Origin: a virus
Virus record (IMG/VR): IMGVR_UViG_3300045988_090936
Length of the DNA: 58,728 bases
Strand: one strand, 5' to 3'
The notes below the pieces were generated by a model. That model had not been told where the DNA came from. It ran no database searches and saw only the letters and a list, made by a program, of their open reading frames with translations. A program made the position numbers and the translations under genes. Of this stretch, positions 10,001 through 39,656 are shown piece after piece; the stretch's first letter is position 1; each line of letters opens with the position of its first letter.

Positions 10001-10723
10001 CTACACTCCTTGCTTATTACCCCATACTAAAGTATGAACTTGAGGTAATATAAATACTCTTTCCATATATGAATTAGCAACCATATTTATTAGTTTTTCA
10101 TAATCTGTTAAAACTCTTTTTGATATATCTCCAGCTTCAGTAGTATTAGTATTACCTACGCTTAAGTATAAATCAATATCAACGCCTTTTTCTCTATAAT
10201 AATCAACTAAAGCATAATACTTCATTGCAAATTCAAAATCTTCTTCATTGAATACTGGTATTTTAATTGCTACCTTTTGTTTAATACTTGTTAACAATTT
10301 CATATATTCATTAACTGTTTTATAAACATCAGGTTGTTTACTTGATGGTGCCTTTGGACTGATTACCAATAGGTCTACATCTAATAACCAATCAGGCATT
10401 TTACTTCCTTGTGTTTCTATATCCACAGTAATATTATTATCATGTAAGATATCTATTACTTCTTTGAAATCATATAAACAAGGATTACCACCAGTTAATA
10501 CTACATTGCTGCATTTACTATTATTACATTCTTGTACTAATATATCAGCCAATTCTTTTGTGCCATACCTTTTGATAGAACCATCTATCTTCCAGGCGAA
10601 TTTACTATCGCACCAAGCACATTTGAAATCACATCCTGCTACCCTTACAAATAAAGTTTGCATTCCTACATGTGGTCCTTCTCCTTGAATTGTTGGACCA
10701 AATATTTCAGCAACTGGAATCAT
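10001..10723 (-). CDS. queE: 7-carboxy-7-deazaguanine synthase (radical SAM)
   Basis: TIQGEGPHVGMQTLFVRVAGCDFKCAWCDS cluster motif. Confidence 0.9.
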   Translation of the reverse strand: MIPVAEIFGPTIQGEGPHVGMQTLFVRVAGCDFKCAWCDSKFAWKIDGSIKRYGTKELADILVQECNNSKCSNVVLTGGNPCLYDFKEVIDILHDNNITVDIETQGSKMPDWLLDVDLLVISPKAPSSKQPDVYKTVNEYMKLLTSIKQKVAIKIPVFNEEDFEFAMKYYALVDYYREKGVDIDLYLSVGNTNTTEAGDISKRVLTDYEKLINMVANSYMERVFILPQVHTLVWGNKQGV

Positions 10724-11241
10724 TATAACACTTCCTTTTCATCAAATAATGATAATTGTTCATAATTACTATTTTCTTCCTCTACTTCTTCATAATCTTT
10801 TTCTACTGTGGCATATGAATCAGCTGTTTCATATAATACCATTTTTGTTAACTGAACTTTTTTACTTACATTTAATTCATTATGTAAATAGTTTTCAATT
10901 AACTCTGCAAATACATGAACCATATATTCTGCTGTTGTTGGCTCTTCAAATAACATAACCTTGTTTTCATATCTATCAGCAACTTCTTTATAATCAAGAT
11001 TCTTTTTATCACCAACATAGCATAAAAACATATGATCTGGAAGAACTTCTTTCATAGCTTCTTTTAATAACTTAAAATCAACTACCATTCCAAATTCCGA
11101 ACTATCTCTTGGACCAGTTAATGTTACGTATGCTTTATATGTATGACCATGTAGATTTCTACATTTACCATTATAACCTTCTGGTAAAACATGTGCTGCA
11201 TCAAAATCAATATGCTTTGTTACACTTGTTAAGTTTTCCAT
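10723..11241 (-). CDS. queD: 6-carboxy-5,6,7,8-tetrahydropterin synthase with acidic C-terminal tail
   Basis: FDAAHVLPEGYNGKCRNLHGHTY motif. Confidence 0.85.
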   Translation of the reverse strand: MENLTSVTKHIDFDAAHVLPEGYNGKCRNLHGHTYKAYVTLTGPRDSSEFGMVVDFKLLKEAMKEVLPDHMFLCYVGDKKNLDYKEVADRYENKVMLFEEPTTAEYMVHVFAELIENYLHNELNVSKKVQLTKMVLYETADSYATVEKDYEEVEEENSNYEQLSLFDEKEVL

Positions 11242-11262
11242 ATTATTTCCTCCTTCACTATT

Positions 11263-11270
11263 ATTATACG
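11263..11270 (-). promoter_or_regulatory. CGTATAAT motif copy
   Basis: AATTCGTATAATAATAGTGAAGGAGG upstream of queD. Confidence 0.45.
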
Positions 11271-11272
11271 AA

Positions 11273-11476
11273 TTACTTTTCTTTGATTAACTTATGAATG
11301 TTAATTATTACTAAAATACCATTTAGTAACCATACACTTAAACTGCCAATCAATATTCCATAAATGATAAATAGAATTGCTCCTATTGTATCAAATATTC
11401 TTATTAACTTTTTACTATTCATTGCAAACGCTATTACTATAAATAATGTTGCAATGATTCCTAATACTTCTACCAT
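11273..11476 (-). CDS. 67-aa integral membrane protein with three hydrophobic helices (possible triple-helix-bundle mini-transporter)
   Basis: Three hydrophobic stretches (LGIIATLFIVIAFAM / IGAILFIIYGILIG / VWLLNGILVIINI); translationally coupled inside the que/dpdA operon. Confidence 0.55.
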   Translation of the reverse strand: MVEVLGIIATLFIVIAFAMNSKKLIRIFDTIGAILFIIYGILIGSLSVWLLNGILVIINIHKLIKEK

Positions 11477-11874
11477 CTACTCATATCCTCCCACGGATAA
11501 ACAATCCATTCATCCTTCTTTACATATTCGAAATAATCAAAGAAGCATTGGAATTGTGCTTCCTCTGCTAATTGATTATCTTTCACATACATTGCTGTTA
11601 TAAAATAATTCTTCTCATTCATTAAATCTGAATACTTCTTCATTGTTATACCTGTATCAATAATATCATCAATGATAATACAACCAGGTTGTGGATTCAT
11701 TAGTATTGGTTTATCTATTTCATAAGATAATAAGGTTGCAAGCATTAAACCACCTCTTGGAAATGTAAATATTCCAGGACATTCATCTAAATGAAAGTAT
11801 TGATCTTTTTTAAGTCTATCTACTAAATTATATAGATATTCTTTTACTTCCCACCATTGAACATATTTCTTCAT
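11470..11874 (-). CDS. type I phosphoribosyltransferase, Gpt (xanthine-guanine PRTase)-like
   Basis: PRPP motif CIIIDDIIDTGITM, FPRGGLMLATLL, C-terminal WIVYPWE; overall layout parallels E. coli Gpt. Confidence 0.75.
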   Translation of the reverse strand: MKKYVQWWEVKEYLYNLVDRLKKDQYFHLDECPGIFTFPRGGLMLATLLSYEIDKPILMNPQPGCIIIDDIIDTGITMKKYSDLMNEKNYFITAMYVKDNQLAEEAQFQCFFDYFEYVKKDEWIVYPWEDMSRW

Positions 11875-11883
11875 AATTACCTC

Positions 11884-12786
11884 CTAGAATAATGGCTTTC
11901 TTGTAATCTTATCTTCGTATTTATAATTGTTACAGAAGTCTAATATGTAATAAACATTTATTACTGTTCTATAGATATAGCCTCTTTCTCCAGTTATTTG
12001 ATCTAGGGTAATTCCTAGTTTATCAAGATACTTTTGTAATGTTTTCATTGCTGCATCTGATTTATTAAAGATATGATTCTTTAAATTACTTTGTACATCA
12101 CTTACTGGAATAATACCGTAATCAGTCATAATACTTCCTCTACTAGCACACATAATATGACTTGTACTATCTGCACTTGTTATTGGAAAACTTTTTAATA
12201 ACTTTTGATTAGTCATTCCGAATGTATGTACTTTAATTTTTCTACCAGTTTCTTTTTCAAATTCTTTTATAATTAAGAATACTTTATTTAAGAAATATTC
12301 TATTTGATTTTTAGATGCTCCAACTAAAGCACCAACTGCTATATAATCTTTTCCATATGATAAAATCTTTTTAAGATATTCCCAGCTTTCACCTTCATGG
12401 AAGACTGGTATAAGTTTTTCAGGATACTTTAAATGTTCCATCATATAGTTATAATTCTTTTCGCTGGCTTCTTCTGTTTTATCCCCCTTGAATTTAGGGA
12501 TTACATCTAATGGTGCTATTATATCAACATATTCACCAATCTCATTGATATAAGATATATAACTATCTATATCAACTTCATCTCCTTTAGTACTTACTGT
12601 ATAAGCACCAGAGTCTATAAATAATTTACCAGTATATTCAGGATGTTCTTTTTTATATTCAACAACCCTCTTAATCATTGGTCTATTATTATATTGAGAG
12701 AGCAACATATTACAGTTGTTCTCCATCAATATATTAAATAACAATTCTGAATTCCATCCTACAAAGAAATAATCTAACTTATTCAT
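11884..12786 (-). CDS. dpdA: DpdA-type DNA-guanine transglycosylase
   Basis: LFIDSGAYT motif, TGT-like size, and context with folE/queDEC. Start moved to MNKLDYF behind GGAGG. Confidence 0.75.
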   Translation of the reverse strand: MNKLDYFFVGWNSELLFNILMENNCNMLLSQYNNRPMIKRVVEYKKEHPEYTGKLFIDSGAYTVSTKGDEVDIDSYISYINEIGEYVDIIAPLDVIPKFKGDKTEEASEKNYNYMMEHLKYPEKLIPVFHEGESWEYLKKILSYGKDYIAVGALVGASKNQIEYFLNKVFLIIKEFEKETGRKIKVHTFGMTNQKLLKSFPITSADSTSHIMCASRGSIMTDYGIIPVSDVQSNLKNHIFNKSDAAMKTLQKYLDKLGITLDQITGERGYIYRTVINVYYILDFCNNYKYEDKITRKPLF

Positions 12787-14005
12787 CTGATACCTCCACA
12801 TCTTTTTGGCATAATGGATCTATCAAACCATTTCTTCTAAATGCTGTTTCTCTCATAAAACATGGTCCACAATGATGGCAAGGTTCTTCTCCATCCCTAT
12901 AACAAGACCAAGTATATTGAAATGGTGCATTATACTCATTACCGAATGCCACTATTTCATGTTTCATAAGATTTCCTACTGGAGTTTCTATATCAACATA
13001 TTTACCATTTTGTACAGCCCCATATAAACAAGAGTTAAAATCTTTTATGAATTGGTTTTCATTATCTGGATATGCTCCACCTTCTTCTAGGTTTGTTCCT
13101 AATAGAATATGACTATATCCATTTGCCTCACAGAATCCTACTGCTAATGATAACATTATTAAGTTTCTTGCAGGTACCCATTCATAAGCATATTCAGCAC
13201 CTTCAATTCCATCTTTGATATCTTTCTTATCTCCAAATAATGCTGATTGCTTATTCATAAAGGACATATCTATTGGAATAACTTTATAATCACATCCTAG
13301 GTATTCAGCAATTTTCTTAATACATTCTAATTCTTTACTTTCAGCGATACAACCATATTGGTAATGTAATAGAATAGTATTCTTTGCTCCATATTTAGCA
13401 CAAGTATATGCTGCTACAGCTGTACTATCTAATCCACCTGAGCATACTACTGCTGCTTTACCTGTATCCTCTCTAGGTATTGGTAATGATTCTCCTGTTT
13501 CTTCATCTAGTATTGAATATGGTTCTAACCTCTTAACATTTTCTATTCCTTCTAAATGATTTTTATAACTTGAAAATATAAAATTCTCTTTTCCTGGGTT
13601 AGCATAGAAAATAGGTTTATAATTACAAGCAAGATAGAAATGTCCGTTTGGTTTCATTATTGCTAATGCATATGAACCTTTCAATTTTTGAATACTTTTT
13701 TGTAATGTATAGATATTACTAAAATCTAATACTTTAGATATAATGTAACTATCTATCATACCTTCCTTATTTCCCAACTCTTTATCATTTGCAATAGTAC
13801 CATTATGCACTACCTTATAATCTGTTCCGAATGGTTGGTTAAACTCGGAACTTTCAACTTCAGTTGTTGGAACTGCTCTATGATTACAAATCCAACTTCC
13901 TTTACGATAGAAGATATTACTATAATCTCTTCCTCTATCTAGTGCTCTATTGAACACTTTTATTGCTTCTTGGTCAAACTTACGACCACCACAAATTGAA
14001 CACAT
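12779..14005 (-). CDS. queC: Gat-QueC fusion (class II glutamine amidotransferase + 7-cyano-7-deazaguanine synthase domain)
   Basis: Starts MCSICGG (N-terminal Cys) behind AAAGGAGG. Also HNGTIAND, PP-loop VCSGGLDST and the zinc motif CHHCGPC. Confidence 0.85.
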   Translation of the reverse strand: MCSICGGRKFDQEAIKVFNRALDRGRDYSNIFYRKGSWICNHRAVPTTEVESSEFNQPFGTDYKVVHNGTIANDKELGNKEGMIDSYIISKVLDFSNIYTLQKSIQKLKGSYALAIMKPNGHFYLACNYKPIFYANPGKENFIFSSYKNHLEGIENVKRLEPYSILDEETGESLPIPREDTGKAAVVCSGGLDSTAVAAYTCAKYGAKNTILLHYQYGCIAESKELECIKKIAEYLGCDYKVIPIDMSFMNKQSALFGDKKDIKDGIEGAEYAYEWVPARNLIMLSLAVGFCEANGYSHILLGTNLEEGGAYPDNENQFIKDFNSCLYGAVQNGKYVDIETPVGNLMKHEIVAFGNEYNAPFQYTWSCYRDGEEPCHHCGPCFMRETAFRRNGLIDPLCQKDVEVSDE

Positions 14006-14066
14006 ATCTTTTCCTCCTTTTAGTTTTTCAAGTGGATTGGGTTGTGGATACCTTCCACCTAATATT

Positions 14067-14074
14067 ATTATACG
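14067..14074 (-). promoter_or_regulatory. CGTATAAT motif copy
   Basis: ATACGTATAATAATATTAGGTGG, overlapping the polA stop and upstream of gat-queC. Confidence 0.4.
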
Positions 14075-16344
14075 TATATACTTTCCCCATACCAGCAAGC
14101 TGATATTTCTGCATCACATTTCATTGGAACTGAACATCTATCATTTGACTCTATCATTACTTGGGATAATAATTCTGTTACCCTCTTAACATTCTCAATA
14201 GGACATTCTCCTATATTTTCATCATGAACTGACATCAATAATCTAAAACCTAATTCATTTAGTTCTTTATGATTATACAATGCCACCATTGCTCTTTTTG
14301 TCATATCGGCAGCAGAACCTTGAACTATTCCATTAACTACTTGTCTTTCACTAGATGCCAACCAAGCTCCATTATCTTCAATGATTATTCCATTTGCTAA
14401 TGCATCATCCATTATTTTCTTTCTTTGATTAAATGATGCTTTTTCTAATTGTTTATTGTAATAATCTTTTATCTTTTGACTTACTTCATTATCTGCTTCT
14501 TCATCCGAATCAAATAATGGGTCAAAGTTAATTGGTCTGTTAACCCCATACTTATATTCATATCTTTCTTTTTGAATATATTTAAGATATCTTCTTCTTC
14601 CCCATAAAGTAGTTGTATAACCAGTTTTCTTTGCTTCGGCTTTGGCTTTTTCTATGTATTCCTTTATCTTTGGAAAACCTTCAAATAAGGAATTAGAAAT
14701 TTCTCTTGCTTCTTCTGTTGTTATTCCTAACTGTTCAGCAACTGAAGCATCTCCTCTACCGTACATTAACCCTAGAACAACTCCTTTAATATTACTTCTT
14801 CTTTTCTTACCTTCTTTATTGGTTGTACCATCAGGATAGAATTCTTTACAATCCTCATAAGGAACATGAAATGCTATACTCGCCATTGTTGAGTATAAAT
14901 CTTTTCCTGTCTTATAGGCATTTATCATATTCTCATCCCCACATAAATGTGCAAGTATTCTTGGCTCTTGTTGGGAATAATCGGCACCTACCATGTAATA
15001 ACCATCAGTGGCTTTAAACATACATCTAATTCCACCATCTCTTGGTATATTTTGTAAGTTAGGGTCTGAAGAACTAAATCTTCCGGTGTCAGCACCATTT
15101 TGATTAAATGAAGCATGTAATCTACCTGTTACCTTTTCAATCTTGGCTGGTATTGCTTCAATATAGGTACTTAATAATTTTTTAATAGTTCTATATTCTA
15201 AAATAGCATTAGTTAATGGTAAGTTAATATGTTTCAAAGCTGCTTCATCTACAGCTCTTGGATTATCTTTGTTACCACTTTGACATCCAATGATATCATA
15301 TAACAATATTGCTAATTGTTCAGGACTATTAAAGTTTATTGGATTTTGTAACTTGGTATTATAATGTATCATTCTGAATTTAACTATATTATCTTCATAC
15401 AATGCTATATTATCCTCTACCTCTTTAGTTACCTTTTCCATTTTCTCATTGTATTCTTTATTTAGTTTATCAGCAAGTTCCATATCTATTGCTACTCCAG
15501 TTCTTTGCATTGATGCTGTTACCTGGATTAAAGGAACTTCAACTTCTCTAAATAATTTATACATTTCAGCATTCTCTGGTCTTTCAAAGAATTCTTTTTG
15601 ATGTTCATAAAGTTTATAAGTCATCCAAGCATCTCTTGCGGCATAAATATATCCACTTTCAATTGGTACTTGGTCAAATCTTAAACCTTCAAACAAATCA
15701 TTAAAATGTGATAGAGTTTCTATCTTATCTTTATTTTCTAAATGACTACAATATTTACTGTATTGGTCTTTCAAACTTCTTTTGAATTCATCATTAGTTA
15801 TTAAATAACTTGCAACCAATGTATCCCAATATGGACAGTTCATTTTAGAATCTAGAAAAGTTTCAAGCATATTGATATCGAACTTACCATTGTGGTAAAT
15901 GAATTTAATGTTTTCATTAACGCATTGTTTCATTTTATCCTTAACAAATTCTATATCAGCTTGATTTTCAAGTCTCTTATTATAAATACTTGAAATATGA
16001 TTTAGAGGGATATAGGAAGCTTTTTCTCCCTCTGTATATAAACATATTCCAACAATTATATCTTCAAAAAAGTTTAATCCTGTAGTTTCTGTATCTATTG
16101 CTGCTATTCCATTGGCTCTTATATGCTCGAAGTATTCTTCAATTTCTTCATTGCTGATTAGTATTCTATAATCATCTTTATATTCTCCAAGGTTTTCGCT
16201 GATTCTTTCTCTTATTGCATTTATTCTTGCTAATAGATTATTGCTCTTTGAAGTTTTCTTATTTTGAGACTTTTTTAATGCCTTCTCTTTTAACATCCTA
16301 TCCATTTCTTTTGAAGTTCTTGAATAAGTATCAAAGAGAGCCAT
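14068..16344 (-). CDS. polA: family A DNA polymerase with 3-prime-5-prime exonuclease domain
   Basis: IAAIDTETTGL (Exo I), RLHASFNQNGADTGRFSSSDPNLQNIP (motif A region), RRSNIKGVVLGLMYG (motif B), MSVHDE (motif C). Confidence 0.92.
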   Translation of the reverse strand: MALFDTYSRTSKEMDRMLKEKALKKSQNKKTSKSNNLLARINAIRERISENLGEYKDDYRILISNEEIEEYFEHIRANGIAAIDTETTGLNFFEDIIVGICLYTEGEKASYIPLNHISSIYNKRLENQADIEFVKDKMKQCVNENIKFIYHNGKFDINMLETFLDSKMNCPYWDTLVASYLITNDEFKRSLKDQYSKYCSHLENKDKIETLSHFNDLFEGLRFDQVPIESGYIYAARDAWMTYKLYEHQKEFFERPENAEMYKLFREVEVPLIQVTASMQRTGVAIDMELADKLNKEYNEKMEKVTKEVEDNIALYEDNIVKFRMIHYNTKLQNPINFNSPEQLAILLYDIIGCQSGNKDNPRAVDEAALKHINLPLTNAILEYRTIKKLLSTYIEAIPAKIEKVTGRLHASFNQNGADTGRFSSSDPNLQNIPRDGGIRCMFKATDGYYMVGADYSQQEPRILAHLCGDENMINAYKTGKDLYSTMASIAFHVPYEDCKEFYPDGTTNKEGKKRRSNIKGVVLGLMYGRGDASVAEQLGITTEEAREISNSLFEGFPKIKEYIEKAKAEAKKTGYTTTLWGRRRYLKYIQKERYEYKYGVNRPINFDPLFDSDEEADNEVSQKIKDYYNKQLEKASFNQRKKIMDDALANGIIIEDNGAWLASSERQVVNGIVQGSAADMTKRAMVALYNHKELNELGFRLLMSVHDENIGECPIENVKRVTELLSQVMIESNDRCSVPMKCDAEISACWYGESIYV

Positions 16345-31110: not shown

Positions 31111-32214
31111 TTATTTTATTGTTTTGAATTTTTCTTTTTTAACTTCTATAAATGAACCACCATTTACTGATATGTACATTTTCTTTTTATCAAAAGTTCC
31201 ACCATTTACTGATACATAAATGTATTTATCAGATACAATAGTAATAGTACCACTTACAACTTGTGCTGAACCAGCTCCACCACCATTAAAATGTTTATTA
31301 CCAGCCCAGTCCTTTGAGTAAGAATATAATCCAAACTTAATTACATCTCCTACAGCAAAGTTATAATCTGCACCGTTTATGGTTTTTGAAGTAGCAGTAC
31401 TTTCTGTATCCTCCATAAGAATTTCTGTATTGTTCTTATATAATCTAAATCTATAACCTGCTATTGGTTTAGAACCTGCCGATCCAGCATCCCAACTAAA
31501 TGTATAAGCAGCTGTTGGTATGGGTTCATTTTTATTATAAGCAATTTTTAGATTACTTGGTGCTCCTGGATTTGTAAATCCAGTAGTAAAGCTACTTACT
31601 CCGGTATAACTTCTTCCGGCAGCATTGGCAGCATTACCTCTGGCATAATAAGTTCTGTTAGGATCTAATCCAGTAAAAGTTCCAGCTCTTGAACCAATTG
31701 ATTTAACTACCGATCCAAAGTTTGATAAAGATAAATCTATATAACTATCTGAAACACTACCATTGTTGGCATTATTTATATTGAAACTTATATATGCCGA
31801 TGTATCTGATACGCTGCTTATACTTAATCCACTTAATGATGGTTTTGAACAAGTAGGTAAATCATATACAGTTAATGTAACATATCCTGGGTCCCAAGGA
31901 TCCCAGTTATTACCTTGTGTTCCTACACTTATATTGCAGCTTGAAGCTCCTGGGTCTAAATCAACCGATTTTCCTACCCAACCACCATAGTATTTTACAT
32001 TTTTTGATGATTTTGATCTATCTTTTACAACATATCTATTTCCTTCAGTCCAAACCGCCCATACGTTTGTTGAATAAGTATTGGTGCTTTGATATAAATA
32101 GGCTCTATACTCGAAATAAACGCTTCTACCATTTCTGGATACATTTCTTATTTCAGCACCAACATTTGCTGCAACATTTATCTTGGAAGCTCCTGCTTCT
32201 GATATCCAAGCCAT
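31111..32214 (-). CDS. tail fibre / adhesin with fibronectin type III-like repeats
   Basis: S/T/G/N-rich; FTGLDPNRTYYARG and PSNLKI...YTFSW FN3-like signatures; position after the fibre gene. Confidence 0.55.
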   Translation of the reverse strand: MAWISEAGASKINVAANVGAEIRNVSRNGRSVYFEYRAYLYQSTNTYSTNVWAVWTEGNRYVVKDRSKSSKNVKYYGGWVGKSVDLDPGASSCNISVGTQGNNWDPWDPGYVTLTVYDLPTCSKPSLSGLSISSVSDTSAYISFNINNANNGSVSDSYIDLSLSNFGSVVKSIGSRAGTFTGLDPNRTYYARGNAANAAGRSYTGVSSFTTGFTNPGAPSNLKIAYNKNEPIPTAAYTFSWDAGSAGSKPIAGYRFRLYKNNTEILMEDTESTATSKTINGADYNFAVGDVIKFGLYSYSKDWAGNKHFNGGGAGSAQVVSGTITIVSDKYIYVSVNGGTFDKKKMYISVNGGSFIEVKKEKFKTIK

Positions 32215-32226
32215 TTATACCACCTC

Positions 32227-33030
32227 CTAACTTGAAGTATCTATCCAAATTATTGTTTTTCCTGATTGTACTGATGGTTGGGTACCACCAACTTTAATAA
32301 TAGTATTACCATCACTAATTACACCAAAACCTTCAACAGCCTCTTTAACTCTTTGAGGTGTCATGTATTTATTATTTACATTTCCCGCTTTGGCTTCATT
32401 TGTACTAGCAATACTGTAATTCTCTACACTTCCTAATCCTACTTGTGACTTTGTAACACTATGAGGATTATTTGTATTTTGTATATGAGCTGTTAAAGCT
32501 TCATTAACTGATGCTACATCTGTATCAATCTTTTCTCTTAAAGTGGTATCTAATTCATTGATAGCATCATTCATATTATCTACAGTAGCAAATACTAAAG
32601 AAGTATCTATAACTACTTCGACATTTTCTACATTACCTACAACTACGTTTAAATCTATTAACTGTTCTGCTACTGCTCCACCTGCTGGTATATAACTAGC
32701 TTTATCTCCACAGTTATCATAACTAAATAGATATTCTATATTATCTCCATCTAAATCTTTAGCAAATACTCCAACTTCTCTCCAGTAGAATGCTTCTCTT
32801 ACATCTACCCCATATAAGTTAGAACCTATAAGTAAAGTTCTAGCATCAATAATACTATTACGGGCTATTGGCAATGTTTGTTTAACACTAACTAAATCGG
32901 TCAATGATGCAATACTTGATGGTTTATTTCCATCTCCCATTTTGATATGAGTGAATTGAACTTTATGACCATTTAGTAGATTAACTAAAAGTTCTATACC
33001 TTTATCAGTTAATTGTAATCCATTAAACAT
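32227..33030 (-). CDS. tail fibre protein (tail-collar fibre N-terminal domain)
   Basis: MFNGLQLTDKGIELL...FTHIKMGDG N-terminus; NPHSVTKSQVGLGSVENY...KYMTPQRVKEAV fibre motif. Confidence 0.65.
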   Translation of the reverse strand: MFNGLQLTDKGIELLVNLLNGHKVQFTHIKMGDGNKPSSIASLTDLVSVKQTLPIARNSIIDARTLLIGSNLYGVDVREAFYWREVGVFAKDLDGDNIEYLFSYDNCGDKASYIPAGGAVAEQLIDLNVVVGNVENVEVVIDTSLVFATVDNMNDAINELDTTLREKIDTDVASVNEALTAHIQNTNNPHSVTKSQVGLGSVENYSIASTNEAKAGNVNNKYMTPQRVKEAVEGFGVISDGNTIIKVGGTQPSVQSGKTIIWIDTSS

Positions 33031-33033
33031 TTA

Positions 33034-33924
33034 TTATCCCTCCTTTATTTTAAATACACAAGAACTATCATCAAGATTATTGATTTCATCCACTTCTCCC
33101 CATATATTAAATCTTATATAATGAACGCCAGAAGGAACCGTATATTCGTTAACCCTTAATGTGGCGCTTCTTGAAATAAATGTATCTTCTGTTGGACCTC
33201 CATAAATTGCTATTCTATCGAATGGCTTGTTAATATTGTTGGTAAACTTATATGTTTTTCCTGGTATAACCTTCATTATGTTTGCAACGGTTTTGCTTCT
33301 ATCCGGATAAGTTATAGTATCTATTGATCCATTTTGAGCATTTATGGTTCCTCTTACAATAGTTTTAATTAGATTACCAGCAATTTCATCTGAATCATAT
33401 GCACTATCAATCTTATATTTGATTCCAATTCTTAATGCCATTCCTACTTTAATATCTGCACTAACTAATGGTGGACCACCAATTTCTAACACCATATTTG
33501 AAGGTATTGCATTTCTTAATTGTTTTTGAACCTCTATCATCATATTTGTATCAAGACCTGATAGAACTATTGTAATAGCATAATCATCTTGATTTATATT
33601 TAAGGTATATCCACTAGGTGAACCAGTTATTTGAGTTAACTTTTGTATTAACCATCTATAAGTATATGGTAACTTACTTGTTAATAAATTGTTAACTCTA
33701 AATCTTCTAGTTTCTAATGAATCTCCATCTTTAGGAGTTATTCCTAACGCCTTTTCCCATTTTTGAATTCCATATAAGCTGGCACTTTTTACTATAACTT
33801 CTTTTCCTATATCTGTTATATATCCATCTAATTGTTCCAGCTCTATATCTAAATCTTCATTCAATAATTTTAAATCAATTACATCTTTTAAAGTTTCTGG
33901 AAGATATTCATGTATCCTAGACAT
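33034..33924 (-). CDS. XkdU/P2 gpI-like baseplate protein with extra C-terminal beta-rich domain
   Basis: YLPETLKDV...GIQKWEKALGI...ETRRFRV pattern (DUF2313-like). Confidence 0.6.
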   Translation of the reverse strand: MSRIHEYLPETLKDVIDLKLLNEDLDIELEQLDGYITDIGKEVIVKSASLYGIQKWEKALGITPKDGDSLETRRFRVNNLLTSKLPYTYRWLIQKLTQITGSPSGYTLNINQDDYAITIVLSGLDTNMMIEVQKQLRNAIPSNMVLEIGGPPLVSADIKVGMALRIGIKYKIDSAYDSDEIAGNLIKTIVRGTINAQNGSIDTITYPDRSKTVANIMKVIPGKTYKFTNNINKPFDRIAIYGGPTEDTFISRSATLRVNEYTVPSGVHYIRFNIWGEVDEINNLDDSSCVFKIKEG

Positions 33925-34981
33925 TGATTACCACATCTCCTTCCCTTACTGGAATTTCATTACTTTCCAATGAAAGGTTAGAAGATGAATTATTCATTTT
34001 AGTATTTGTAATATCTAATACCCCAGCTACTCCAAGTAACCTTGTTTCTAATTGACTAATTCTTGCAATAAGATTATCTTCTTTATCCCAGCTATTTGAT
34101 AATGATTTGAAATAATTATCTACTATATTATTTACTGAATCTTGAATATCTGTTGGGTCTACCCCTGATTCTAAAGTAAATGTAGCACTTACAGTTATGT
34201 TCTTTGCTACAGCTCCTTCAACAGTAACAATATGACCTATTGGTGCAATTCCTAATCCTTGTTGGTCTTGGTTAGGGTCTACTGCTTCTTGAACATCATT
34301 TACTAATGAACTTGTAGGAACTCCTCCTTGCGAGTTAGTAATTATAAGTTTTACTGTTCCTCCACCATTCCATATTGGAACTACTTTACATCCACCAACT
34401 CCTGTTAAAGATTTAACTTTTGTTTGATAATCAGAAACATTACCACCAAATTGTGGAGCAGTAACACTTTCCATATATCTTACTCTTAAATCTTCATCAG
34501 ATTCTATATCATCACCCATATCAATTATATCAGTTAACTCTGCTCTTGTAAGTCCTTGTAAATAAGTTATTGGAGTTAGAGAACCATAATAACTATTACC
34601 AACTACTCCAGCTTGTTCACATCTTAATATCGAGTTATTTGTACCTACAATATTTTCAATAACAATATAAGTATTTTCTCCATCACTAAATCTATTATCA
34701 ACTGGTACTACCATATTGAATTCACCTTTACGTAAAGCATAAGTGGCATCTTTTCTTTTAACACCATTTTGTTCTACTAATTTATCAAGGGCTTCTCCTA
34801 CGGCAGTATCTATAAATACCTGGTCATATATTCCTGATAGTTCTATATACATTTGAGCTAATTCTACGCAGCAAGGTGCTAAAGCATCATAAATTATAGA
34901 ACCTTGTCTTTTATCGATAGTATTGGGAATTCTATCTAGACATCTTTGAAGAATCTCTTCATAAGTAGGTATTTCATTCAT
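33917..34981 (-). CDS. baseplate J-like protein (XkdT-like)
   Basis: Size, position and an N-terminal pattern typical of baseplate J. Confidence 0.7.
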   Translation of the reverse strand: MNEIPTYEEILQRCLDRIPNTIDKRQGSIIYDALAPCCVELAQMYIELSGIYDQVFIDTAVGEALDKLVEQNGVKRKDATYALRKGEFNMVVPVDNRFSDGENTYIVIENIVGTNNSILRCEQAGVVGNSYYGSLTPITYLQGLTRAELTDIIDMGDDIESDEDLRVRYMESVTAPQFGGNVSDYQTKVKSLTGVGGCKVVPIWNGGGTVKLIITNSQGGVPTSSLVNDVQEAVDPNQDQQGLGIAPIGHIVTVEGAVAKNITVSATFTLESGVDPTDIQDSVNNIVDNYFKSLSNSWDKEDNLIARISQLETRLLGVAGVLDITNTKMNNSSSNLSLESNEIPVREGDVVINV

Positions 34982-35373
34982 TATAGATTCACCTCCCAGT
35001 TAATATTGATATCACCAATATTTGTTTCAACTAAAAATACTACATTCGCTACATCTTTATTAAAAGAGATATCAAAATCAGTAACATCTAATATTCTATC
35101 ATCTTCTAATATAGCTTCAGCAATTCTTCTTTTCAATTCTGACTTAACAAAATCTCTATCCTTTCCAACTAAAGAATCAAATTCAGTACCATAATACCAA
35201 TTGTATATTACTGATTCATATCTCTCGGTAGAAAGTATTAAATAGATTGCTTGAACAATAGCATCTTTATCGTCTATGTAACCGGAAATACGATTTGTAT
35301 TTCTATTTATATAATATGTTTTAGACGGCATAGTATTATCTTGTTGATATATTGTATTATAATCTGGCAACAT
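34981..35373 (-). CDS. XkdS/gp25-like baseplate wedge protein (DUF2634-like)
   Basis: KTYYINRNTNRISGYIDDKDAIVQAIYLILSTERYE pattern. Confidence 0.6.
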   Translation of the reverse strand: MLPDYNTIYQQDNTMPSKTYYINRNTNRISGYIDDKDAIVQAIYLILSTERYESVIYNWYYGTEFDSLVGKDRDFVKSELKRRIAEAILEDDRILDVTDFDISFNKDVANVVFLVETNIGDININWEVNL

Positions 35374-35411
35374 ATCTAATTACCTCCTTCTTTTCTTTAA
35401 TTATTTTATGT

Positions 35412-35876
35412 TTATGATACTCTCTTCCAGGCATAAACTTGAAAAGTGGCTATATTATGTGAGTGCCCTTCACTAGCATTTGAACCTCCTGCATATTCAG
35501 TATTAGTCCAAGAGTCTTCGTGCATATCTCCTTTATATACATCTCCATGAAATCCATAAGACATCTCAGAGAATTTGTAAAAAGGAGAATGAATATTATG
35601 ATTATGTGCTGGTAATCCTGATTGATTAGCAGTTAAAGTATGACTTTGAGTACCGATTCCTGTATAATTAGTTTTAGTACCACCAGTTCCTAGATATAAA
35701 TAATAACCACTTATTTGTTCCCATTTTCCTCCAAAGATAGTTCCTGGGTTGGTATTGTTTACTGATAAATAAACATAACCTATTGGAAATAGAATAGTAT
35801 TTAATATTTTCTTATTATGTACTATTCCTCTAGTATCTAAATATAAATTATTCTTTAACTTAACTGATTTGCTCAT
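35412..35876 (-). CDS. receptor-binding tip protein, cassette A (154 aa)
   Basis: PIGYVYLS...NPGTIFGGKWEQ, HNHNIH and GHSHNI HxH motifs, C-terminal VYAWKRVS; paralogous to the next three genes. Confidence 0.7.
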   Translation of the reverse strand: MSKSVKLKNNLYLDTRGIVHNKKILNTILFPIGYVYLSVNNTNPGTIFGGKWEQISGYYLYLGTGGTKTNYTGIGTQSHTLTANQSGLPAHNHNIHSPFYKFSEMSYGFHGDVYKGDMHEDSWTNTEYAGGSNASEGHSHNIATFQVYAWKRVS

Positions 35877-35892
35877 ACCTTACGGTATTATC

Positions 35893-36356
35893 TTAACTTA
35901 CTCTTTTCCACATTTTTACTACTATATAAGGTTGGAGGTTTCCACTATTTCCAGTATTAACTCCTCTTACACCCTTTGTATATACAGCGCCTCCTTGAGA
36001 TACTTCTGTATTTGTTGCTACTCCGTATCCACCAGCTGGTGCGGGTATTGGAAAATCACTATAATAAGTATAATGACTATGTTCCTGTATATATTTACTA
36101 CCACCAGTTTTTAGCAAAGTATTAAATTCCGTTTGTGAAGTATCAACTCCTACAAGACATCTTCCTGTTCCAAAAGTTTCCCAAGTACCGCCAAAGTAAG
36201 TAGAGGGATTAGTATTAACAGTAGATATAAATATGGAACCTACCGGATAAATATTATCAAGTAAGTTATTTAGATAATACCATCCCCCCCCCTCTTATGT
36301 ACTATTGAGGTTGAAGAAAGGTATAAACTATTTTTTAATTTTACTGCTTTTGACAT
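35893..36356 (-). pseudogene. receptor-binding tip protein, cassette B, interrupted by a frameshift at a G9 tract (phase-OFF allele)
   Basis: ATG at 36356 gives MSKAVKLKNSLYLSSTSIVHKRGG, then the frame breaks at the G9 run and stops after 28 aa. With 10 G the frame runs to 35893 (154 aa, ending KMWKRVS). Confidence 0.8.
36284..36292 (-). repeat. homopolymeric G9 tract (C9 on the plus strand) inside cassette B
   Basis: Plus strand cat-ccccccccc-tctt, counted directly. Confidence 0.9.
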
Positions 36357-36374
36357 ATAGTTTGAACTATATTA

Positions 36375-36833
36375 TTAAGCTGTTCTTATCCAAATATAAC
36401 ATGTAATATAAGGTTGAAAATTAGAAACAGTACCTGTATTTCCATGATTATGCGGTTGATTATAACCATATTGACCATAGTCTCTTAATGAGGTAATCTG
36501 CCAACCACTAACCCCTGTTTTTGCAGCTCCTGATAAATAACCAAAGTTACCATCAATGCAAACTTCTAATGGTAAATGTTTATAATCTAAAGTAAAGTTT
36601 CCAGTTGTATGATAATGTTCTTTGTTACCACCAGTTTTCTTAACAGTATTGAAATTGATATCTGATGTATCCACGCATACTGGAACTCTTCCTGGACCAA
36701 ATAGTTCCCACTTACCACCAAGATAGTTTGATGGATTAGTTGCTATAGTAGTAAGAAATAAATCTCCTACCCTATAATATGGAGTGGTTACAATTTTATT
36801 ACCTGTTTTATCTTTTAAATAAACTGCCTTCAT
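36375..36833 (-). CDS. receptor-binding tip protein, cassette C (152 aa)
   Basis: MKAVYLKDKTGNKIV..., RVGDLFLTT...NPSNYLGGKWE, HNHGN, C-terminal YIWIRTA. Confidence 0.7.
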   Translation of the reverse strand: MKAVYLKDKTGNKIVTTPYYRVGDLFLTTIATNPSNYLGGKWELFGPGRVPVCVDTSDINFNTVKKTGGNKEHYHTTGNFTLDYKHLPLEVCIDGNFGYLSGAAKTGVSGWQITSLRDYGQYGYNQPHNHGNTGTVSNFQPYITCYIWIRTA

Positions 36834-36847
36834 TCTATTCTAATAGA

Positions 36848-37288
36848 TTATTTTATTCTTTTCCATACCCATACACCAATATGCGGAATATCATGTGAAT
36901 GTCCTTTACCACCGCCTGTATAAGACGTATCTCTTTCAAATCTATATGTGGTTGAACCATCTTGTACTCCAAGTATATCTTCACCACCAGCTTGTTCTGA
37001 ATAATACATTCTTGGCGCCCAATAAATATGCTTATGAGATGGTATTTGGTTAATTGTCAATGTTGTGTCAAAGCTCTTTGTAGAACCAACGCTACTATTC
37101 ATAAGGTTATTATCTATAGCGCTATTACATCCCCAAAGAAATCCTCCAGAAATCTTTTCCCAGGTTCCTCCAAAGTATTTACTTGGATTATCATTAGATA
37201 CGGTTAAGAATATTGAACCAATAGGCATCCACGGAGCAGCAAATACTTTATTTCCATTTTTATCTTTTAACTGAACCGCCCTAGCCAT
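36848..37288 (-). CDS. receptor-binding tip protein, cassette D (146 aa from MARAVQLKDKNGNKVF)
   Basis: PIGSIFLTVSNDNPSKYFGGTWE, SHKH, GHSHDI, C-terminal VWVWKRIK. Start chosen at the ATG behind AGGTGA, parallel to the other cassettes. Confidence 0.7.
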   Translation of the reverse strand: MARAVQLKDKNGNKVFAAPWMPIGSIFLTVSNDNPSKYFGGTWEKISGGFLWGCNSAIDNNLMNSSVGSTKSFDTTLTINQIPSHKHIYWAPRMYYSEQAGGEDILGVQDGSTTYRFERDTSYTGGGKGHSHDIPHIGVWVWKRIK

Positions 37289-37391
37289 TGGCATCACCTA
37301 ATCTATTTATACCTCCTTCCGGAGATATATGAGAAGGAGAACAACTTAAATAAGTTCTTCCCCCCCCCCCTCGAATTATTCTAAACATCAT
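37281..37391 (-). CDS. 36-aa leader ORF containing a G11 tract, ending on the cassette D start codon
   Basis: AAAGGAG RBS 9 nt before ATGATG; MMFRIIRGGGGRTYLSCSPSHISPEGGINRLGDANG; its stop TAG overlaps the ATG of cassette D (ATGGCTAG). Confidence 0.4.
   Translation of the reverse strand: MMFRIIRGGGGRTYLSCSPSHISPEGGINRLGDANG
37360..37370 (-). repeat. homopolymeric G11 tract (C11 on the plus strand)
   Basis: Plus strand ttctt-ccccccccccc-tcgaa, counted directly. Confidence 0.9.
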
Positions 37392-37408
37392 AATTTCAAA
37401 CTCCTTTC

Positions 37409-37960
37409 TTAAAAGTCTTCAATTACTTCATACTCTAAATATACATCTAAATTAGGTTTATTCTTTATGTAATCTAAAGAAGATGTATTAGTTTGATTCC
37501 AATCACTTTGTATTTGAGCAGCTGGTATAGTTGGTTTATCTCTTAAATCATTATAAGAACCAGTTTTTGATATCTTATGTAATTTAATAGTTCCTCCTAT
37601 TGTTTCATTACTGCTTACTGATTGGCTTGCTGTATTATTAGTATTTAGAATTGGCTTGTTTTGAAGGTCATTATAATTTATTGTACCTCCACTTGCTGCC
37701 TTTCCTAAAATATAAAATCTTTGACCATTGTTGTAACGAACCATTTCAATTTCTTCTCCCACAACAAGTGGTAGGGCTGAACTAGGAGAAGAGTCATCTA
37801 TTCCTAGACTCCTAGGTTCAATGAAGCTCAGCCCTATACTAATTTTATTACTAATTCTTACTTTTAGAGGTTCTAAAGATTCTACTGTACCTTTTATTAT
37901 TGTTGTAAATGAAATACTGTTTAATTTACGGTTTATTGCTTCATTTATAGTATTTATCAT
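37409..37960 (-). CDS. XkdR/gpV-like baseplate spike protein with C-terminal fibre repeats
   Basis: GTVESLEPLKVRISNKISIG (DUF2577-like OB fold); repeats YNDLQNKP / YNDLRDKP / DYIKNKP. Confidence 0.55.
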   Translation of the reverse strand: MINTINEAINRKLNSISFTTIIKGTVESLEPLKVRISNKISIGLSFIEPRSLGIDDSSPSSALPLVVGEEIEMVRYNNGQRFYILGKAASGGTINYNDLQNKPILNTNNTASQSVSSNETIGGTIKLHKISKTGSYNDLRDKPTIPAAQIQSDWNQTNTSSLDYIKNKPNLDVYLEYEVIEDF

Positions 37961-38946
37961 TCAAACCTCACCTCCAAGTCCATATCATGAATACCATTTG
38001 AGTACTTATCCTCTATCTTGGTAATCAATGCAGCTTGGTTAAATGTAATACCAGGTATATCAGTTATTTGAAGATAGATACCATTACCTGGTTCTAAATC
38101 TATTAACCCTTTACAATTTAATTTCAAAGTTCTATTTAATCTATTATAAAGTCTTAATAGTTGTTCTGCTTTGGCTCTTGCTTGAGCATCAGTAACATTT
38201 TCATCAACTGATTGATATAATTGAAGCATACCCCATCTTTTCTGATTATCAGAATCTTTTACTATATATACTTCTCTTCTACCTGTATCTTTATTATCTT
38301 TGTATAACTTAACACTGTTATAAACATCTGAATCTATTGATTCTTTATAACTATAATCTTTTAATAAACTTACATTACCTATAATTGCATTGGTAACTAA
38401 TTTACTTACATCTCTGCAGCATAAGTATCCAAACTCATCTCTAATTATATATTGTCTACCAGTTCCTTGTAAAGTAAAATCTATTGCTCTTTGAATTATA
38501 TCTCCTAGCGCTTTATTATCTTCTACCCTTTCTGGTAATATATATCTAGAACCTTCAATAGTTCCTAATCTTAAATTGAAATCTCTTCCTATCAATCTAA
38601 TAAGGTTTTCCATAGTAGTTCCAGTTAATACATAACTTTCACTATTCTTTAGATATCTCAATTGATCATAGGCTGTTATACTAACACTATCTCCTTTTGG
38701 TTCTGCTGTAAATATATAACCAAAGAATTTTCCTTTTCTCTTTCCACCTTCAGTAACTGTTAAACTTACTGTACTACCCATTGGAAATCTTATTTTATTT
38801 TGATTTGTATCAATAGAAAAGGAACACTTTCCTGCAGAGTTATCGATAGCTTTACTAGTACTTACATCTTTTGCAATATTACTTACATCGTATATAGTAC
38901 CATCTTCTGAACTTTGAATAATCAATTCTAAACTATCATACTGCAT
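37957..38946 (-). CDS. XkdQ / late control gene D-like baseplate hub protein
   Basis: Size and conserved position between the LysM protein and the spike. Confidence 0.55.
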   Translation of the reverse strand: MQYDSLELIIQSSEDGTIYDVSNIAKDVSTSKAIDNSAGKCSFSIDTNQNKIRFPMGSTVSLTVTEGGKRKGKFFGYIFTAEPKGDSVSITAYDQLRYLKNSESYVLTGTTMENLIRLIGRDFNLRLGTIEGSRYILPERVEDNKALGDIIQRAIDFTLQGTGRQYIIRDEFGYLCCRDVSKLVTNAIIGNVSLLKDYSYKESIDSDVYNSVKLYKDNKDTGRREVYIVKDSDNQKRWGMLQLYQSVDENVTDAQARAKAEQLLRLYNRLNRTLKLNCKGLIDLEPGNGIYLQITDIPGITFNQAALITKIEDKYSNGIHDMDLEVRFE

Positions 38947-38957
38947 AGTGTTCCCTC

Positions 38958-39656
38958 CTAACTAGATGGAATTGAAAGAACTTGACCTGGATAAATCAAA
39001 TTAGGATTTCCACCTATAATACTCTTATTATTATTATATGTATAAATCTCTCTCCACCTAGAACCACTACCAAGAAATTTTTGTGCTATCTTCCACAAGG
39101 AATCTCCACTAATTACTGTATATTGTTTAGGTATTGATTTTTCCACTGGTCTATTACTATTGGTTGTTGTAGGTGCTGCACTAGAAACAGTTCTACCACT
39201 ACTATCCACAACCATATAACCATTGCTTACTGGTTTAAGTATTCTTACATTATGTTCTTTATATTCCTTTAAACTTAAACTATAATCAACATCATCAGTA
39301 CCAAATTGATAAGTATGTTCAAAACTCTCAACACTTACTAACATATTGATATCTAATTGGGTTATTATCAATCTAAATGGTTTTCTATCTTTCTTTATAT
39401 CCTCGAAGAACTTAACATAGAATTCTGGTCCTTCAAATCCTCCACTAGTATTGATATACCCTTCTCCATTATCCCTCGCAGGAAAGAAGGATTCGATAGA
39501 TAATTCCTTTAACCCAGCGAATCCAATATCATTGATTTCTCCTTGTCCTACGGTATCAACAGTATTATTATTGGCTTGACCACTAATAGTAATACTCTCG
39601 GGATTTACAGGAAGCTGTATAATTCTCTCATTGTACTTTGCAAAGAAACTTATCAT
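38958..39656 (-). CDS. XkdP-like LysM-domain tail protein
   Basis: C-terminal [27 protein letters not shown]...[10 protein letters not shown] LysM. Confidence 0.7.

Follow-up and report, generated by a model that had tools for sequence, protein, structure and literature searches.

Tandem free-standing Gp10_C heads and two poly-G tracts in the PBSX-like baseplate operon of an uncultivated phage: a putative exchangeable and partly phase-variable receptor-binding array

Phages can carry built-in means of diversifying their receptor-binding tips. We analysed a putative case, an array of four tandem genes for small free-standing head proteins (cassettes D, C, B and A) with two poly-G tracts, at positions 35,412 to 37,391 of IMG/VR virus record IMGVR_UViG_3300045988_090936. 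This 58.7 kb contig (58,728 nucleotides (nt); GC content about 30%; essentially every gene encoded on the minus strand) is hereafter called the window. The nearest precedent comes from Campylobacter phages, in which poly-G-controlled, phase-variable receptor-binding proteins have been described (Sorensen 2021, summarised in PMC10579305), and this polyG phase variation (Sorensen et al. 2021, Cell Rep 35:109214) is also cited in PMC12823448 and PMC10877375. As far as these summaries go, the array resembles the Campylobacter (Fletchervirus) system in its hypermutable poly-G tracts and its phase-variable receptor-binding proteins, which are putative here. The two differ in that a Campylobacter myovirus is concerned there and an uncultivated phage, putatively of low-GC Bacillota, here. 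In addition, one tract lies here in one of four tandem mini-head paralogues within a baseplate operon, and the second lies in a leader open reading frame (ORF). Invertible tail-fibre segments of Mu and P1, the diversity-generating retroelement (DGR) of Bordetella phage BPP-1 and polyG tracts are named as receptor-tip diversifiers in passages of PMC10579305 and PMC12823448. Built-in tip diversification is the point of likeness, and one relative of the window, L012, has a true DGR in the same tail module. The window itself has neither an invertase nor a reverse transcriptase (its six-frame profile scan covered reverse transcriptase); in contrast to Mu, P1 and BPP-1, variation here would come about by cassette exchange and tract slippage. 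In T2 and T4, simple-sequence repeats with reversible frameshifts have been described as contingency loci for bet-hedging (Gomez, Barrick and Waters 2025 preprint, PMC12633550), and for coliphages the same study found a deficit of repeats in tail-fibre genes and in other genes of infection (PMC12633550). In contrast, the only two long G runs of the window sit in the putative host-recognition array.

The likeness to T4 genes 10-11-12 is one of homology, as the cassettes match the C-terminal head domain of gp10 (2FKK, PF21939). The adjacent T4 baseplate genes 10, 11 and 12 are said to encode products that share a head fold and form a peripheral network. T4 gp10 has 602 amino acids (aa) in PDB entries, gp12 has about 527 and gp11 about 219, and gp10-gp12 are fixed and essential. 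gp10 and gp12 are long multidomain proteins and gp11 is larger than the stand-alone heads of 146-154 aa described here. Unlike the T4 proteins, the cassettes vary in number and are swapped between near-identical genomes, one of them is putatively phase-variable, and they have an HxH motif that is missing from gp10 in the alignment. The receptor-binding proteins (RBPs) of lactococcal siphophages, BppL of TP901-1 (on BppU) and ORF18 of p2, are trimeric proteins of about 160-260 aa whose short N-terminus plugs into a carrier and whose heads are exchangeable. They differ from the cassettes in head fold and family, belong to siphovirus baseplates and are encoded by one RBP gene, not by a tandem array; to our knowledge, no homopolymer switch controls them. 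In the open-access literature we found no description of tandem free-standing Gp10_C heads between spike and sheath-initiator genes, nor of homopolymer switching of such heads in phages of Gram-positive bacteria. We consider it rather probable that the array is an exchangeable and partly phase-variable set of receptor-binding heads.

The four cassettes are tandem minus-strand genes of about 150 aa each:

36848..37288, minus strand: cassette D, 146 aa, intact; Gp10_C 55.5 bits, E 1.5e-14; short N-terminal adaptor type (MARAVQLKDKNGNKVF)
36375..36833, minus strand: cassette C, 152 aa, intact; Gp10_C 76.5 bits, E 4.9e-21; short adaptor type
35893..36356, minus strand: cassette B, out of frame; when repaired, Gp10_C 87.3 bits, E 2.4e-24; long adaptor type (MSKAVKLKNSLYL..SIVHKRGGGW)
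35412..35876, minus strand: cassette A, 154 aa, intact; Gp10_C 41.4 bits, E 3.5e-10; long adaptor type

The initial annotation, made before any database search, had reported four consecutive genes with shared end and core motifs around unrelated central segments. All four genes are present and D, C and A are intact, but B is frameshifted by a run of nine Gs (G9). The motifs were borne out. At pairwise identities of 23-36%, the invariant positions of the four-cassette alignment include V5, L7, K8, N43, P44, G49, G50, W52, E53, H91, H93, W150 and R152, and the central segments can be aligned only via gaps. Cassette A has two HxH motifs, and the HxH residues H85 and H87 are invariant across 76 homologues. 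All four cassettes, B in its repaired form, score above the gathering threshold of Pfam PF21939 (Gp10_C; 27 bits, profile length 139), with matches that span profile positions 1-7 to 139. In a six-frame profile scan of the window, the frames matching Gp10_C were exactly these four. Their PHROG matches fall on C-terminal parts of tail, baseplate-wedge and tail-fibre families. A profile of the 76 homologues, compared with the whole PDB, found only the C-terminal domain of T4-type gp10 at E <= 1e-4. The best match, 2fkk_A (E 4e-12), was aligned over the stretch bounded by the YP[IV]G motif and the C-terminal W-x-R, and the invariant HxH motif of the cassettes is missing from gp10 in this alignment.

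The Gp10_C-type domain is common in cultured phages, and with 1,087 places in 1,080 records it is almost never repeated within one cultured phage genome. The best tblastn matches in cultured phages were the extreme C-termini of long structural or tail proteins of Streptococcus prophages. Each cassette, on the other hand, is a separate protein in which only 20-35 residues precede the head, as expected of the shaftless mini-proteins first proposed. There are two types of this N-terminal segment, one shared by D and C and the other by B and A. Judged by these matches, the cassettes are members of the fibre-tip/head domain family Gp10_C; they would be old paralogues of one free-standing head protein.

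Comparison with relatives revealed how variable the array is. Genomes whose LysM, XkdQ, XkdS and XkdT are 96-100% identical to those of the window have arrays of 1, 2, 3 or 4 cassettes, and cassettes in equivalent slots are 38-97% identical, mostly 40-70%. More distant clade members have no cassette at all (L012, L029 and L047), and L176 has a single one. With 0-4 cassettes and content that differs between near-identical flanks, the four-gene block is neither invariant nor ubiquitous. Nucleotide identity to four relatives follows a saw-tooth pattern: from 0.97-1.0 in the flanks it drops to 0.45-0.55 within every cassette core and climbs back to 0.9-1.0 at the junctions. D-type orthologues show the same pattern at the protein level. 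Most of them share 96-100% identity over residues 1-50, where a divergent subset has 70-80%, and most share 83-100% over residues 129-146. Between these ends (residues 51-128), identity lies anywhere between 10% and 90%, and column conservation falls to about 0.2 over residues 88-123. Diversity thus exceeds that of the neighbouring structural genes and is concentrated in the central part of the proteins, in agreement with the conserved-ends, variable-middle layout noticed at the outset. In several relatives, slot A is occupied by a protein of 153-172 aa that shares only about the first 29 residues (76-79% identical there), and no Gp10_C match was found in these replacement proteins. Since they keep the N-terminus only, this suggests that the N-terminal segment is a conserved adaptor, whereas the remainder of the protein can be swapped as a head. 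The pattern, which the comparison displays directly, points to recombination at conserved ends and junctions that swaps cassette cores between phages. Searches of IMG/VR with exact-flank DNA patterns added 0 and 1 loci.

In L012 (IMGVR_UViG_3300045988_096523), where the XkdR gene directly adjoins XkdS, a DGR lies between XkdU and a fibre gene (L012:8718-11709). Its target ORF has 498 aa, its variable repeat (VR) lies at 10094-10208, its template repeat (TR) at 10312-10426 and its reverse transcriptase at 10567-11709, and 18 of the 19 TR/VR mismatches are at TR adenines. A DGR in the window was rejected because the six-frame profile scan found no reverse transcriptase-like sequence there; DGR features were present only in the relative L012. 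An invertible segment was rejected because all cassettes are on one strand and each has its own start codon.

The same variability could be read differently. The cassettes might be structural baseplate connectors, like T4 gp10 and gp11, which hold or orient the downstream fibres and vary because they co-vary with them. T4-type gp10, the only solved homologue at E <= 1e-4, is a connector of the short tail fibre, and the C-terminus of XkdU and the downstream fn3 protein also vary among close genomes. However, an essential part should not be absent from three relatives, single in another, or frameshifted in about half of the contigs. Moreover, variation is concentrated in the central insert while the ends are near-identical, and in cultured Streptococcus phages the domain is found at the extreme C-terminus of long tail proteins. 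In the alignment, gp10 also lacks the invariant HxH, a motif typically found in fibre tips that bind metal and receptors, T4 gp12 among them. We regard a connector role as unlikely and retain exchangeable receptor-binding heads as the preferred reading.

The case for phase variation comes from cassette B, in which the following tract was found:

36284..36292, minus strand: in-ORF poly-G tract (G9) in a Gly linker between adaptor and head; G10 is the in-frame length

Cassette B is 464 nt long, a length not divisible by 3, and its reading frame is interrupted at the G9 run once 28 codons have been read. Another frame is open over the 133 C-terminal codons, and G10 or G7 would restore a protein of 154 aa. 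The repaired protein is 95% identical to P0012, an intact 154-aa homologue from a related contig, and its exact N-terminus (KRGGGW) is present in the intact homologues P0012 and P0066. Across relatives the tract varies from G8 to G11 between identical flanks. In our survey of 22 contigs, B was in frame in 10 (G10 in nine, and G9 in a variant context in one) and out of frame in 12 (G9 in eight, G11 in three and G8 in one). Changes of length are tolerated at the position of the Gly linker. Two contigs, L010 and L015, break exactly at the tract, and contigs ending there are an indirect hint of switching within a population.

Such tracts are not expected by chance in this genome. G runs of at least 9 bases occur twice in the window, where 0.02-0.03 are expected, and these two, G9 in B and G11 between the XkdR gene and D, are the only G/C homopolymers of at least 6 bases. 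A/T homopolymers are strongly depleted window-wide: there are 2 T runs of at least 7 bases vs 49-66 expected, and 0 of at least 8 vs 27 expected. Slippery runs thus seem to be selected against throughout the genome, the two G tracts excepted. Both tracts hold their positions in relatives down to about 75% identity. Because the B tract is long beyond chance and polymorphic in length with both frames represented, it has the features by which a contingency locus is recognised at the sequence level. Slipped-strand change of tract length would thus switch the B head on and off, with B off in this window and natural on and off alleles among the relatives. The early suggestion that the array is switchable therefore holds for B, where 10 alleles are in frame and 12 out; the regulatory role of the upstream tract is one that we infer.

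The length differences could instead be sequencing or assembly artefacts, so that B would be either intact or a dead pseudogene and there would be no switch. Long homopolymers are error-prone and all our data are contig consensus sequences; it may also be speculated that the QueC fusion encoded in the window means modified guanines that disturb polymerases. Against this, the spread in length, G7-G13 for the upstream tract and G8-G11 for the B tract, is seen in independent assemblies of three sources (JGI, ENA and Logan). B alleles in frame are about as frequent as those out of frame, and the same two tract positions are kept in relatives that are only about 75% identical. One relative has an interrupted upstream tract (G6AG3), A/T runs are purged genome-wide yet both G runs persist, and assemblies break at the tract. 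Artefacts of this kind are therefore, in our judgement, an improbable explanation. Programmed transcriptional or ribosomal slippage would be another, in which every genome makes a fixed small fraction of full-length B or of leader read-through. Runs of 9-11 identical bases are known slippage sites of RNA polymerase, and the out-of-frame alleles are all one or two bases from the in-frame length. However, length polymorphism at the DNA level among near-identical genomes is heritable variation anyway, and the two mechanisms are not exclusive. We give little credence to slippage as the full account and prefer a heritable on/off switch of B.

A second tract lies upstream of D, inside a short leader ORF:

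37281..37391, minus strand: 36-codon leader ORF (MMFRIIRGGGGRTYLSCSPSHISPEGGINRLGDANG), strong Shine-Dalgarno (SD) sequence; the TAG stop codon of the ORF and the D start overlap (ATGGCTAG)
37360..37370, minus strand: poly-G tract upstream of D, within the leader ORF; G11 when read on the coding strand
37308..37368, minus strand: two predicted RNA hairpins; RNA folding -41.5 kcal/mol, z = -2.5

The leader ORF is conserved in relatives, in which the upstream tract, between identical flanks, is G7, G9, G10, G11, G12, G13 or the interrupted G6AG3, with G10 the commonest length. Tract length sets the position of the leader stop. With G11, as in the window, the leader ends after 36 codons and its stop overlaps the ATG of D. 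With G10, G13 or G7 it ends after 14-15 codons, and with G9 or G12 it usually ends 28-30 codons in, near the ribosome-binding site of D. In L007 (G9) and L187 (G12), downstream 1-nt indels move the leader end to the D start. L005 and L176 are without the G-tract element of about 75 nt, and in L005 a leader of 12 codons ends over the D ATG. An N-terminal extension of D made by frameshifting was rejected because stops in all three frames separate the leader from D.

In the first predicted hairpin, the G tract pairs with an invariant CCUUCUC arm, and the second, AUAUCUCC-GNRA-GGAGGUAU, is invariant. A consensus RNA structure holds in 7 relatives; its paired columns are mostly invariant and neither support nor refute the hairpins. 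An Rfam search of the region gave 0 matches. A promoter scan of the region was at chance level and terminators were not found there, so that a role of the upstream G tract as promoter spacer or terminator was dropped. In L181, the upstream G tract and the B tract are the exact end points of a deletion (L181:3520-3564) that removes D, C and the N-terminus of B; the leader is fused to the C-terminal part of B, out of frame at G10. Because the deletion runs tract to tract, the two tracts can recombine.

Translation signals along the array are uneven. The SD duplex of the leader has an energy of -13.7 kcal/mol and that of D one of -10, whereas C, B and A have -1.3, -0.7 and -1.5, against a window median of -12.1; this places C, B and A in the weakest 1-5% of 77 ORFs (C in the weakest 3%). 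D is the only cassette with its own SD (AGGTGAT). The junctions before C, B and A (36834-36847, 36357-36374 and 35877-35892, minus strand) have no SD and leave 14-18 nt from the preceding stop codon, C starting 14 nt past the D stop. Both the weak-SD pattern and the near-identical junction sequences recur in relatives. As an SD is found only at the leader and D, it is supposed that C, B and A are probably translated in a chain, by coupling from one entry point, and the junctions may serve both translational coupling and recombination. If the array is chained in this way, the leader tract could tune all of it, and an out-of-frame B could lower A.

The array lies in an otherwise conserved baseplate operon, between the spike gene and the following gene:

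34981..35373, minus strand: sheath initiator (XkdS/gp25-like), Pfam PF10934, E 8.9e-26; downstream array boundary

By Pfam, the gene order is LysM protein, YQBQ/XkdQ hub, DUF2577/XkdR, array, sheath initiator, Baseplate_J and Mu gp48-like (XkdU). This is the order of a PBSX-type module at 39656..33034, with the sheath protein upstream. XkdU is followed by a protein with a tail-fibre N-terminal domain and then by the fn3 protein. Conventional fibre genes had been assigned to 33034..31111, which has to be corrected in that 33034..33924 is the XkdU/Mu gp48-like baseplate gene. For comparison we collected 160 further PBSX-like modules, drawn partly from metagenomes and partly from genomes of 185,579 species, and used 140 of them as distant modules (XkdQ below 50% identity, both flanking genes present). 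These have the same core gene order with an XkdQ-to-XkdS gap of median 316 nt and at most 744 nt, and none of the 140 has a Gp10_C-like ORF within 6.5 kb on the coding strand of the operon. In C. difficile phage CDMH1, the DUF2577 gene directly adjoins the gp25-like gene. The flanking genes are thus normally adjacent, as the initial annotation had stated. The lack of a cassette in the 140 distant modules indicates that the array is a true insertion confined to one clade. On this comparison, it is a clade-specific hypervariable island in an otherwise conserved PBSX-type baseplate operon.

Two further observations concern variable sites in this operon. In L005 (L005:3990-6461), one cassette is followed by four extra ORFs of 115, 198, 441 and 77 aa ahead of XkdS; the 441-aa ORF, the one tested, had no Pfam match. 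Their position before XkdS indicates that the same insertion site takes unrelated cargo. The other site is XkdU (33034-33924, minus strand), in which an N-terminal part of about 180 aa is conserved and the C-terminal extension is variable or absent. XkdU is 182, 296, 306, 319 or 328 aa long among genomes with identical XkdS, and by these lengths its C-terminal extension is a second variable baseplate site.

Upstream of the array, the following gene encodes the putative carrier of the heads:

37409..37960, minus strand: DUF2577/XkdR-like spike protein, 183 aa; Pfam DUF2577 at residues 9-43; ends with EVIEDF

Most XkdR-like homologues carry PF10844, and in most clade members the C-terminus reads [F/Y]EVIE[E/D]F. 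In the AlphaFold2 model, residues 20-88 form a beta-barrel (oligonucleotide/oligosaccharide-binding (OB) fold) with a predicted local distance difference test score (pLDDT) of 72-85. A Foldseek search with this model found generic OB folds, and the Mu baseplate chain V and the R2 pyocin spike were non-significant (E 0.1-0.4). Identification as a spike is therefore based on Pfam DUF2577, fold class and synteny; the open-access literature on DUF2577/XkdR structure yielded nothing useful. The C-terminal region of about 95 residues contains fibre-like Y-N-D-L-x-x-K-P repeats and is left unfolded in the AlphaFold2 monomer. Three Y/I-N/K-D/N-L/K-x-x-K-P copies (NYNDLQNKP, SYNDLRDKP and DYIKNKP) are encoded at 37409-37690 (minus strand). 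In three relatives the head is fused to this protein: DUF2577 is followed by Gp10_C in L009/P0140 and L017 (E 1e-30), and by Collar and Gp10_C in L011. These fusions suggest that the free-standing heads most likely dock on the XkdR-like protein, namely on the fibre-like C-terminal extension of the DUF2577 protein. In L011, the repeat region is expanded to many ATSGKYSDL-type repeats ahead of the Collar domain.

The cassettes are small and free-standing and are dispensable in some relatives, and so they might also be soluble or cell-associated proteins outside the virion, for example receptor blockers for superinfection exclusion or decoys. We hold this to be very improbable, given their position in the middle of the baseplate operon between spike and sheath-initiator genes, the fusions to the spike protein in three relatives and the conserved N-terminal adaptor segments.

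The preferred reading of the array as exchangeable receptor-binding heads can be put as a sequence of steps. Each cassette would consist of an adaptor of 20-35 residues, a conserved core of the T4 gp10/gp12 family with HxH, and a hypervariable central insert. The head proteins would trimerise, and the adaptors would dock on the baseplate, most likely on the C-terminal extension of the DUF2577 spike. The heads would then act as alternative or additional receptor-binding heads. Recombination at conserved ends and junctions would exchange cores between phages, and slipped-strand length change of the G tract would turn B on or off. Receptor binding and incorporation of the cassettes into virions, like a role for the upstream tract, are what we infer from gene content and comparison. 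Within the reach of sequence analysis, the interpretation first proposed is supported in each part that could be examined.

Several points weigh against this reading. The C-terminal domain of T4 gp10 is a structural connector and is not known to bind receptors. For D, the AlphaFold2 monomer model reached a mean pLDDT of only 67, and Foldseek with this model gave no significant match, the top two being 9nxk (phage tail fibre) and 2fkk (E 0.1-0.7). Tract lengths were taken from assembled contigs and not from reads, so that homopolymer consensus errors are possible, and L193 is in the same G11/G9 state as the window, which indicates some stability. As to the leader, almost no covariation was found in the RNA hairpins in the consensus fold of 7 relatives. 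D has its own SD, which is left unpaired in the predicted fold, so that D may escape gating by the leader tract altogether.

The layout of the array, [leader-G]-D, C, then B[G], A, is regular, in that a tract lies ahead of or in the first gene of each adaptor pair. Among the contigs, leader frame and B state are found in each of their four possible combinations. A more elaborate scheme is conceivable, which we put forward only tentatively: a two-tier contingency switchboard in which the two adaptor classes (D/C and B/A) each compete for their own site on the spike-borne fibre, the first gene of each is gated by poly-G, translation has a single entry, and slower recombination at the junctions swaps cores. 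If this were true, one genome would stochastically yield up to four virion types with differing receptor specificities. Phages of Gram-positive bacteria would thereby gain their first system of this kind, and contractile tails their first example of a central spike that carries interchangeable receptor-binding heads.

How gut- and animal-associated Firmicutes phages track variable cell-wall glycans is poorly known, and this clade is without a cultured member. One clade appears to combine or alternate three strategies, namely mini-head cassette exchange, homopolymer phase variation and, in one relative, a DGR. Phage contingency loci controlling receptor-binding proteins would then reach beyond Campylobacter phages. 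The design of adaptor and swappable head, with a carrier indicated by fusions, could guide host-range engineering of PBSX-like phages and tailocins.

The window encodes terminase, portal, sheath and tape-measure proteins and has its own PolA, DnaB, RecA, sliding clamp and clamp loader. Megablast of the array region against 50,697 phage records gave 0 matches. The nearest annotated phages are C. difficile myoviruses, with merely 47-48% identity on Baseplate_J, and in the genomes of 185,579 species no close relative was found, the best matches (C. perfringens and Paraclostridium) being 42% identical. The lack of a near relative in sequenced bacterial genomes, together with the phage's own replication genes, suggests that the phage is virulent. 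Its putative hosts are low-GC Gram-positive bacteria (Bacillota). An XkdR homologue of 308 aa, 53% identical, is carried by P0198, a 61,593 bp contig of an NCBI metagenome-assembled genome (MAG); its binning with a Romboutsia timonensis MAG is a weak host hint, and the sole one found. At 12779-14098 (minus strand), a glutamine amidotransferase domain is fused to QueC (Pfam E 5.8e-53). Such a fusion points to phage DNA that is modified with 7-deazaguanine, and modified guanines might, speculatively, affect replication or sequencing of G tracts. The exact XkdS protein of the window is present in 434 blocks of a public assembly index, many of them on contigs of 58-60 kb, and this clade of 58-60 kb metagenomic phages is abundant and widespread.

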